A DNA stretch of 64,000 bases from Escherichia phage pEC-M719-6WT.2, in the sequence record OQ845958.1, one strand, 5' to 3'. This document shows, one piece after another, positions 36,546 through 36,863 of the stretch. How positions within the stretch are numbered: the stretch's first letter is position 1; every line of letters starts with the position of its first letter. Below the pieces are notes generated by a model. It saw only the letters and a list, made by a program, of their open reading frames with translations. It ran no database searches and was not told where the DNA came from. The translations under genes and the position numbers were made by a program.

Positions 36546-36863
36546 ATGAAAACCATTGATTGCAAGGCAGAATACAAAGTTTATTATCATGGGTCAAGCT
36601 CTAATGCTGGAATCCAAAATATGCTTTGTCCTCCTGATGCAACTGGTGTTCTGTCAGAAGTTGGACGTAAGAAAAATTTAGGGCGTGTGTTTTTTACTGA
36701 AGATATTGGTTTGGCGCGTATCTATGCAGGAAGAGCAGCTCGCTCATATGGAGGAGAGCCCCGTCTTTATCGTGTGATTGCACCGGTTGACGTGGTTTGT
36801 TTAAATGATACTAAAGGCGCAACAGTTTATCACGCTGCCTGGGCCTTCTGCGAGGAAATCTAA
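36546..36863 (+). CDS. hypothetical protein with HGS...Y motifs (possible ADP-ribosyltransferase-like fold)
   Basis: 105 aa; VYYHGSSSNAGIQ and FFTEDIGLARIY loosely recall H-Y-E class ART motifs; speculative. Confidence 0.3.
   Translation: MKTIDCKAEYKVYYHGSSSNAGIQNMLCPPDATGVLSEVGRKKNLGRVFFTEDIGLARIYAGRAARSYGGEPRLYRVIAPVDVVCLNDTKGATVYHAAWAFCEEI

Follow-up and report, generated by a model that had tools for sequence, protein, structure and literature searches.

In a 64,000-nucleotide stretch of the genome of Escherichia phage pEC-M719-6WT.2 (OQ845958.1; the whole stretch is called the window below), a T4-like genome segment (Straboviridae, Gaprivervirus-type), the open reading frame (ORF) just after gene 41 encodes a protein of 105 aa for which we predict an ADP-ribosyltransferase (ART) fold closest to that of Arr. 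Structure prediction, transitive homology and profile-profile comparison, as three independent approaches, converged in support of this assignment. We give a probability of roughly 0.55 to the reading that the protein is an active, early, host-directed effector of the ART type. An earlier note on this DNA, made from the letters alone, had drawn attention to the ORF and to two peptides in it. The ORF was present and both peptides were found in the translation (VYYHGSSSNAGIQ at residues 12-24, FFTEDIGLARIYAG at residues 49-62). Its position in the interval between gene 41 and sp was also correct, with gene 41 upstream and Spackle, identified by Pfam, downstream.

36546..36863, plus strand: coding sequence of the ART-fold protein, 105 aa, ATG start; PHROG 2110; ortholog of RB69 orf040c and JS98 gp034

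The suggestion of a minimal ART-like fold was borne out by structure prediction, and an unrelated fold was not obtained. The AlphaFold2 model calculated with the family alignment had a pLDDT of 85.8 and a pTM of 0.78. In the model, beta-strands at residues 13-18, 48-51, 72-78, 84-87, 94-97 and 100-104 and helices at residues 30-33 and 54-68 make up the split beta-sheet core of ARTs (beta1, a long loop with a short helix, beta2, a helix, and beta3-beta6). When the model was compared to the PDB by Foldseek, Arr (9iaf) was at rank 1 with a probability of 0.99 and a TMq of 0.55. It was followed by Tpt1, pertussis toxin S1, Arr-2, RES toxin, cholera toxin, PltA and ParT, and nearly all of the next 25 ranks were ART enzymes. 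Among viral models (BFVD), the matches beyond the family itself were labelled Arr-like, ART-PolyVal, Tpt1-like/RNA 2'-phosphotransferase and PARP.

A search with the family profile retrieved 249 representatives among 1.84 billion proteins. Pfam Arr-ms matched the homologous stretch in 7 of 10 multidomain relatives, with 3 exceeding the gathering score, and it also matched 24 of 55 standalone relatives (best 1.4e-8); zero other families recurred. The matches of the relatives above the gathering score, which is 25, covered only positions 1-67 of the 99 positions of the Pfam model. HHalign of a 108-sequence family alignment against an alignment of Arr, whose sequences were checked against PDB entries, resulted in a probability of 96.9% and an E-value of 1.5e-10, and phage residues 11-84 were aligned with Arr-ms residues 15-82. 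Sensitive profile searching, which the earlier note had proposed, thus pointed to Arr as well. The explicit link to Arr is new in this analysis.

The following segments of the protein were compared to the active sites of known ARTs:

36582..36599, plus strand: beta1 motif Y13-Y-H15-G16-S17-S, equivalent to the NAD-binding motif H19-G20-T21 of Arr-ms
36654..36680, plus strand: signature loop S37-E38-x-G40-R41-K42-K43-N44-L45, which aligns with the S37-N38-F39...G42-R43 loop of Arr
36687..36698, plus strand: beta2 motif V48-F49-F50-T51, with F49 as the equivalent of Arr-ms Y49
36711..36737, plus strand: helix L56-A57-R-I-Y60-A61-G-R63-A64, part of model helix 54-68; Y60, A57 and A61 are invariant
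36783..36836, plus strand: beta4, short loop and beta5, P80-V-D82-V-V-C-L-N87-D88-T-K-G91-A-T93-V94-Y-H96-A, replacing the Arr 84-98 loop

Conservation was determined in 36 aligned homologs and in a wider set of 216 sequences, which comprised 114 T4-like sequences and 102 broader relatives down to about 30% identity. H15, G16, P30, R41, N44, L45, F49, T51, D53, L56, A57, Y60, A61, R63, G70, G91, A92 and V94 were invariant in all 36 homologs. Near-universal in the wider set were Y14, H15, G16, S/T17, P29, P30, E38, R41, K43, N44, F49, T51, A57, Y60, A61, R63, G69, G70, G91, V94 and A100. H96, W99, F101 and E103 were kept within the T4-like clade only. H15 and G16 were each present in 214-215 of the 216 sequences, and position 17 was S or T. 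Position 49 was F in 214 sequences and Y in 2, both of them among the 102 distant relatives; HHalign paired V-F49-F-T51 with I-Y49-I-T51 of Arr-ms, and Phe for Tyr is a conservative change.

Y60 follows F49 by 11 residues, and an Ala is found three residues before Y60. The H-Y-E pattern consists of H21/Y54/A62/Y65 in diphtheria toxin and of H862/Y896/Y907 in PARP1, and the tyrosines that sandwich the nicotinamide (Y54/Y65 and Y896/Y907) likewise have a spacing of 11 residues. The phage protein resembles this site by HG[ST] on beta1, by the aromatic-x-[ST] strand and by the second aromatic residue 11 residues further on. It differs by Phe in place of the first Tyr, by the lack of a Glu at the start of beta5 in the T4-like clade, and by the lack of accessory domains. 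The earlier note had read the H-G-S and aromatic motifs as a loose resemblance to an NAD site. Since these residues are invariant across the family and aligned with H19, Y49 and T51 of Arr, the resemblance goes beyond chance, and a chance occurrence of the motifs was ruled out.

In Arr, H19 and Y49 bind NAD+, D84 within a D-P-N motif is catalytic, and an S-N-[YF] loop is located at the entrance of the active site; contacts to rifampin, direct or via water, include N86, S99 and V140, and H125 variants alter rifampin binding (PMC6092378). We compared the phage protein to the Arr entries Arr-ms (PDB 2HW2/9IAF), Arr-2 (9IBA), Pfam PF12120 and NCBIfam NF033144. The residues E82-D83-D84-P85-N86 were invariant in 19 Arr homologs. 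When two predicted models were compared, an Arr homolog (strands 16-18, 48-51, 71-77, 82-83, 99-102 and 106-112; helices 54-63 and 120-135) and the phage protein showed the same order of secondary-structure elements. Both proteins are unusually small ARTs, and they have in common H-G-[ST], the aromatic-x-T strand, the S-x...G-R loop and an A-x-x-x-A helix. The phage protein, however, is about 40 residues shorter than Arr and has F49 instead of Y49, and the invariant E-x-G-R-K-K-N-L loop and a P-P motif are specific for the phage family. The loop 84-98 of Arr, which harbors D84 and the DPN motif, is shrunk to the six residues D88-T-K-G-A-T. The C terminus of the phage protein corresponds to about residue 112 of Arr, with no C-terminal helix, and the rifampin pocket of Arr (residues about 86-140, including the C-terminal helix) is missing. 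As judged from alignments and models, what the phage protein retains of Arr is the NAD half, and it lacks the catalytic Asp loop and the rifampin pocket.

We therefore weighed whether the phage protein could have the true function of Arr, ADP-ribosylating rifamycin-like small molecules and shielding the host RNA polymerase during infection. Arr is the nearest known relative, and some homologs in GenBank are named 'rifampin ADP-ribosyl transferase'. Homology is, however, limited to Arr-ms residues 15-82, and D84 with the DPN loop, N86, S99, V140, H125 and the C-terminal helix are all missing. Relatives scored only 20-27 bits against the NCBIfam Arr equivalog, the cutoff of which is 130, and the window protein scored nothing. 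With the curated score, the D84/DPN motif and the rifampin pocket all speaking against it, an identity with Arr or a role in rifampin resistance was rejected, and we regard this function as very improbable. The phage protein is a relative of Arr and not a member of the Arr functional family. Most family members are annotated as hypothetical, and a few as 'putative ADP-ribosyl transferase' or 'rifampin ADP-ribosyl transferase'; PP526028.1 (Klebsiella phage KLB15) is one of those with the latter label. This label is probably wrong, because the catalytic loop and the drug pocket are missing.

The absence of a conserved catalytic Glu or Asp had been named in the earlier note as evidence against an ART, and in this respect the outcome was divided. 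The canonical catalytic position at the start of beta5 corresponds to residue 93, which is T93 in the window protein. A conserved acid at this position did not hold up in the T4-like clade, where residue 93 was T in 64, S in 48 and G in 2 of the 114 sequences, with no Glu, Asp or Gln. Moreover, no acidic residue was universal in the beta4-beta5 region of the 216 sequences. Since residue 93 is Thr or Ser and a universal acid is missing from beta4-beta5, a non-catalytic protein that binds NAD is possible. These findings weigh against an active enzyme, and further points have to be set beside them. Searches with the window protein gave zero matches in Pfam (E up to 10), NCBIfam and PADLOC, and sequence searches of the PDB gave zero matches whether the query was the protein alone or a profile of 36 sequences; for this reason, the ART assignment rests on profiles and transitive links. 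The Foldseek E-values were singly weak (best 0.028), and the signature loop was the least confident part of the AlphaFold model (pLDDT 67-76). Our literature searches found no experiments on any member of the family.

Other acidic residues were retained. Residue 93 was E in 18 and D in 4 of the 102 broader relatives. E38, present in 211 of the 216 sequences, was the sole near-universal acid. D82 was found in 96 and E103 in 113 of the 114 T4-like sequences, the latter in this clade only. Position 84 was Glu in 54 of the 102 broader relatives and Val in the window protein. From the alignments, we describe the putative triad of the family as H-[F/Y]-[T/S/E]. This description, with the catalytic loop deleted, and the invariant basic loop are new here. 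With Thr or Ser as the third member of the triad, catalysis would need either assistance from the substrate or a non-canonical acid, for which E38 and, in this clade, D82 or E103 are candidates. A precedent for substrate assistance is given by PARP10-type mono-ARTs (H-Y-I) and by Tpt1, which are active with a non-acidic third position.

We infer NAD+ binding, catalysis, early timing and the class of the target of the window protein from these comparisons and from the gene context described below, and propose the following mechanism. The protein would be a single-domain ART-fold protein with a core of about 95 residues, belonging to an almost exclusively viral family with Arr as the nearest characterised relative. 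It would be made early, together with Dmd, from its own sigma-70 promoter. NAD+ would be bound through H15-G-S, F49-x-T51 and Y60. The acceptor of the ADP-ribose would be a host macromolecule, which the invariant basic E38-x-G-R-K-K-N loop would recognise and perhaps also activate. We propose that this signature loop may bind the substrate or the phosphate of NAD. The protein would act as an effector in host takeover or counter-defence, and other phages would deliver the same module inside portal, tail or polyvalent virion proteins. Our leading guess for the target is RNA, or a protein involved in RNA handling or defence, because of the basic loop, the counter-defence neighbours (dmd, AdfA-like ORFs, sp) and the fusions of relatives to 2H and NUDIX domains. 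In concept, such an effector would resemble Alt, ModA and ModB of T4, phage ARTs that act on host RNA polymerase, MazF and ribosomal proteins as soon as infection begins, and relatives of the window family are virion-delivered, as Alt is. Alt and the Mod proteins, however, are far larger members of the R-S-E clade, and no sequence relation or close fold relation to the window family was detected.

The divided evidence on the catalytic residues can also be read in favor of a pseudo-enzyme that binds NAD+ or ADP-ribose, either acting on NAD-derived signals as a sponge or decoy or inhibiting an NAD-dependent defence protein of the host. The non-acidic residue 93 in all 114 T4-like sequences, the deletion of the Arr D84/DPN loop, and the very small size of a protein encoded amid counter-defence genes would fit such a role. 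On the other hand, 22 of the 102 broader relatives have Glu or Asp at the canonical position, which suggests an enzymatic ancestry and probably active members; a non-acidic third position is compatible with activity in PARP10-type mono-ARTs and Tpt1; and the invariant basic loop with E38 resembles catalytic or substrate-binding residues. We consider the pseudo-enzyme unlikely. The lack of the canonical acid together with the strongly basic invariant loop would also agree with a chemistry as in Tpt1/KptA, which overlaps with the proposed effector role and would add ADP-ribose to a 2'-, 3'- or 5'-phosphate of RNA for repair or end-capping. Like the window family, Tpt1/KptA has an ART fold without the canonical catalytic Glu and needs no catalytic acid, and it was second among the PDB fold matches. 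Among the relatives of the window protein there are fusions to 2H phosphoesterase and NUDIX domains, by which ADP-ribose cyclic-phosphate products are processed, and a gene annotated as RNA ligase 2 lies 4-5 genes downstream in Klebsiella-type and some Aeromonas phages. The fold match to Tpt1 (8tfz_A) was, however, poor (E 0.22, TMq 0.37), and unlike the two-lobed Tpt1 the phage protein is a single domain of 105 aa, which leaves no room for the RNA-binding N-lobe. Anti-signalling roles would account for the 2H and NUDIX fusions just as well (Iyer et al. 2022), and the proximity of the RNA ligase is lineage-specific. We judge this chemistry to be improbable.

The ART family was found in 609 phage records of GenBank by tblastn, 605 of which were matched over nearly the full length. 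Escherichia (215), Klebsiella (116), Acinetobacter (68) and Aeromonas (62) phages were represented, and further records were from phages of Enterobacter, Shigella, Cronobacter and Vibrio. A collection of 5.8 billion proteins contained 121 clusters of the family. The window protein itself was assigned to PHROG 2110 ('unknown function', E 1e-58); in comparisons with translated phage sequences, it showed 100% identity to Escherichia phage DCP80 and 99% identity to vB_EcoM_RZ. The annotation of JS98 gp034 reads similar to RB69 orf040c. When one cellular genome per species was scanned for 185,579 species with a tighter family alignment as query, only 3 loci were found. Two of them were in CPR bacteria, one adjoining a large ORF that looked integrase-like by eye. 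The third (L066) was on contig NZ_JBHSCL010000010.1 (178,077 bp) of a Flagellimonas marina assembly and encoded a homolog with 70% identity; this contig is probably a phage genome or a contaminant, and the gene probably not a chromosomal one. The neighbourhoods of the 3 loci gave nothing informative. The ART family is essentially viral.

The gene context in the window comprises the following features:

33538-34716: uvsX
34706-35050: gene 40
35035-36474: gene 41, upstream of the ART ORF
36482..36506, plus strand: intrinsic-terminator-like hairpin 3' of gene 41, AAAAAGGGGC-TTA-CAGCCCCTTTTT, with 11 pairs, 5 of them GC, followed by a T run
36491..36519, plus strand: sigma-70-type promoter, CTTACA-17 nt-TATAAT with a TG extended -10, 10 of 12 matches
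36536..36539, plus strand: Shine-Dalgarno sequence GGAG, 6 nt before the ATG, read from the sequence
36864..37067, plus strand: dmd homolog, 67 aa, Pfam Dmd PF17587 with E 1.6e-20
37068-37307: DUF7279 ORF
37365-37658: Spackle (sp), Pfam T4_Spackle with E 4e-43
38881-39909: primase gene 61

The promoter at 36491-36519 was the top-scoring site of the sigma-70 type in the region. Early transcription in T4-type phages uses sigma-70 promoters, and the ART gene would be expressed early. A middle promoter of the MotA type was rejected for the ART gene: as read from the sequence, the distance of about 18 nt between a GCTT box and the -10 is too long, and the sigma-70 match fits. The hairpin at 36482-36506 also scored as a terminator on the minus strand. 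The -35 element CTTACA of the ART/dmd promoter sits in the loop and the descending stem of this hairpin. The TAA of the ART gene and the ATG of dmd are contiguous with zero spacer, and with this arrangement, co-transcription and translational coupling of both genes are probable. The earlier note had missed that dmd itself is the immediate neighbour.

The interval between gene 41 and the ART gene is an insertion hot-spot. In vB_EcoM_RZ, it contains two additional ORFs of 82 and 100 aa (RZ coordinates 3303-3932), the longer of which is phrog_17014. The corresponding interval of the window (36475-36545) lacks both ORFs, and JK45 and mar005P1 carry a different ORF of 124 aa there. Besides dmd and sp, the interval between genes 41 and 61 in the window also carries AdfA-like ORFs. 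These are two adjoining ORFs on the plus strand at 37660-38097 (145 aa, phrog_8539) and 38099-38467 (122 aa, phrog_4122), which have the C-terminal motif DDQIFNAFMKR[D/G] in common. The 122-aa ORF showed a weak match to Pfam AdfA (anti-DarT factor A), limited to this C-terminal motif. By sequence, the two ORFs may be diverged or split AdfA-like counter-defence paralogs.

A predicted ART that is directly paired with Dmd in Escherichia, Shigella and Salmonella phages was described as the toxin of a toxin-antitoxin (TA) pair, and 'p0068-like' ARTs were listed among the most frequent viral ARTs, placed in the HY-[EDQ] clade and classed as macromolecule-modifying with speculated RNA targets (Iyer et al. 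2022, Viruses 14:1977). The gene pair of the window and the range of phages fit this description of ART and Dmd, and judged by context only, the window family is very probably the 'p0068-like' family. The fold assignment and the pairing with Dmd are not new, since the literature and some GenBank annotations contain them as predictions.

According to this published proposal, the ART would be a toxin and the adjoining Dmd its dedicated protein antitoxin in a phage-borne type II system. Dmd is known to bind RnlA and LsoA in the manner of an antitoxin. Of the window's pair and 11 further ART-dmd pairs that were measured, all but one had an ART stop directly adjoining the dmd start or a 4-nt overlap of the two; the sole exception was a longer overlap with an automatically called start. 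The same ART-dmd layout is annotated in RZ, JS98, JK45 and mar005P1. A Dmd homolog near the ART gene was, however, present in only 11 of 57 IMG/VR loci, all 11 of which are the closest relatives: where Dmd was directly 3' of the ART (these 11 loci, the window and RZ), the ARTs were 80-99% identical to the window protein. The copies in Klebsiella, Acinetobacter, Aeromonas and Vibrio phages are in other contexts without Dmd, and in T4 gene 41 is directly followed by dmd, with no ART. Furthermore, ARTs that were about 89% identical to the window protein preceded Dmd alleles with either 98% or 53-56% identity. The divergence of Dmd is uncoupled from that of the ART, which speaks for modular shuffling and against a co-evolving binding pair, and the comparison points to recombination at or near the ART/dmd junction. 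A lytic phage also needs no antitoxin for a host-directed early effector. An obligate ART-Dmd toxin-antitoxin pair was rejected on co-occurrence (11 of 57) and on co-evolution; a dedicated TA relationship appears weakened by these sequence data, and we hold it to be rather improbable. That the adjacency to Dmd appears restricted to one clade and not co-evolving, as deduced from these alignments, is new here. The two dmd alleles, with 98% and 53-56% identity to the window's, were seen in loci L010, L014 and L015 versus L013 and L017 (at about 4319-4520 in each locus).

The preferred reading of an early effector can be extended further. In this extended form, the core of about 95 residues would be the smallest working ART known, with an H-F-T/S triad and catalysis driven by the substrate or by E38-x-G-R-K-K-N. 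It would modify RNA ends, a host RNase or a defence protein at the start of infection and would be a counter-defence partner of Dmd instead of a toxin that is checked by Dmd, and unrelated phages would inject the same module within portal or tail proteins. All of these elements together make up a reading that is tentative and, taken jointly, doubtful.

In other phages the ART gene has different neighbours. In Klebsiella-type and some Aeromonas phages, it is located 4 or 5 genes upstream of a family of about 340 aa, which is annotated as RNA ligase 2 in RCIP0002. A protein of 250-300 aa of the phrog_7439 type is encoded just upstream of the ART in the Klebsiella-type and in most Aeromonas loci; the phrog_7439 assignment was made for the Klebsiella representative that was scanned and stands for 'unknown function'. 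Acinetobacter copies lie in the 41-61 interval with no Dmd, and Vibrio and gut-metagenome copies have yet other neighbours. In loci lacking Dmd, a small protein that appeared by eye to be of the membrane type, with hydrophobic stretches, was often encoded just downstream (58 aa in Klebsiella, 68 aa in gut-metagenome and 45 aa in Acinetobacter phages). Neighbours of these kinds are found at 1593-2468 and 2815-2991 of L002, 1683-2441 of L004, 2788-2925 of L003 and about 4290-4720 of L051-L060. PHROG and Pfam scans of the recurrent neighbours phrog_7439, 7467, 17014, 8539, 4122 and 2375 gave only 'unknown function'.

In other relatives, the Arr-like domain is embedded in proteins of up to 3,924 aa. 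It was fused to a lambda-type portal and a 2H/Acb1-like phosphoesterase, to PcfJ, to GNAT and Toprim, or to a minor-tail/tape-measure domain (PhageMin_Tail), the last arrangement including the protein of 3,924 aa. Giant proteins also combined it in tandem with an ART-PolyVal domain, in one case with NUDIX behind the pair. The presence of two unlike ART domains in a single injected protein suggests that their targets are non-redundant. The metagenomic proteins P0134, P0135, P0154, P0153 and P0136 represent the combinations with ART-PolyVal, with the portal and 2H/Acb1-like domains and with the minor-tail/tape-measure domain. Such fusions correspond to the architectures of 'polyvalent' or virion-delivered effectors (Iyer et al. 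2017). They were found among the relatives and not in the window protein itself.

A specialist would not be surprised by the existence of this family, which by sequence and model is an abundant, predicted phage ART family. If the protein is active, it would be a fourth and very widespread ART of T-even-type phages beside Alt, ModA and ModB, and it would define a minimal sequence for ADP-ribosyl transfer. More than 600 sequenced genomes carry the gene, including those of therapeutic-candidate phages of Klebsiella, Acinetobacter and Enterobacter. The labels 'rifampin ADP-ribosyl transferase' could falsely flag candidates for phage therapy as carrying an antibiotic-resistance gene, and the window family should not be annotated as a rifampin resistance gene. 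An active ART would furthermore be encoded in a counter-defence island beside dmd, and its target would reveal which host process or defence is disabled.

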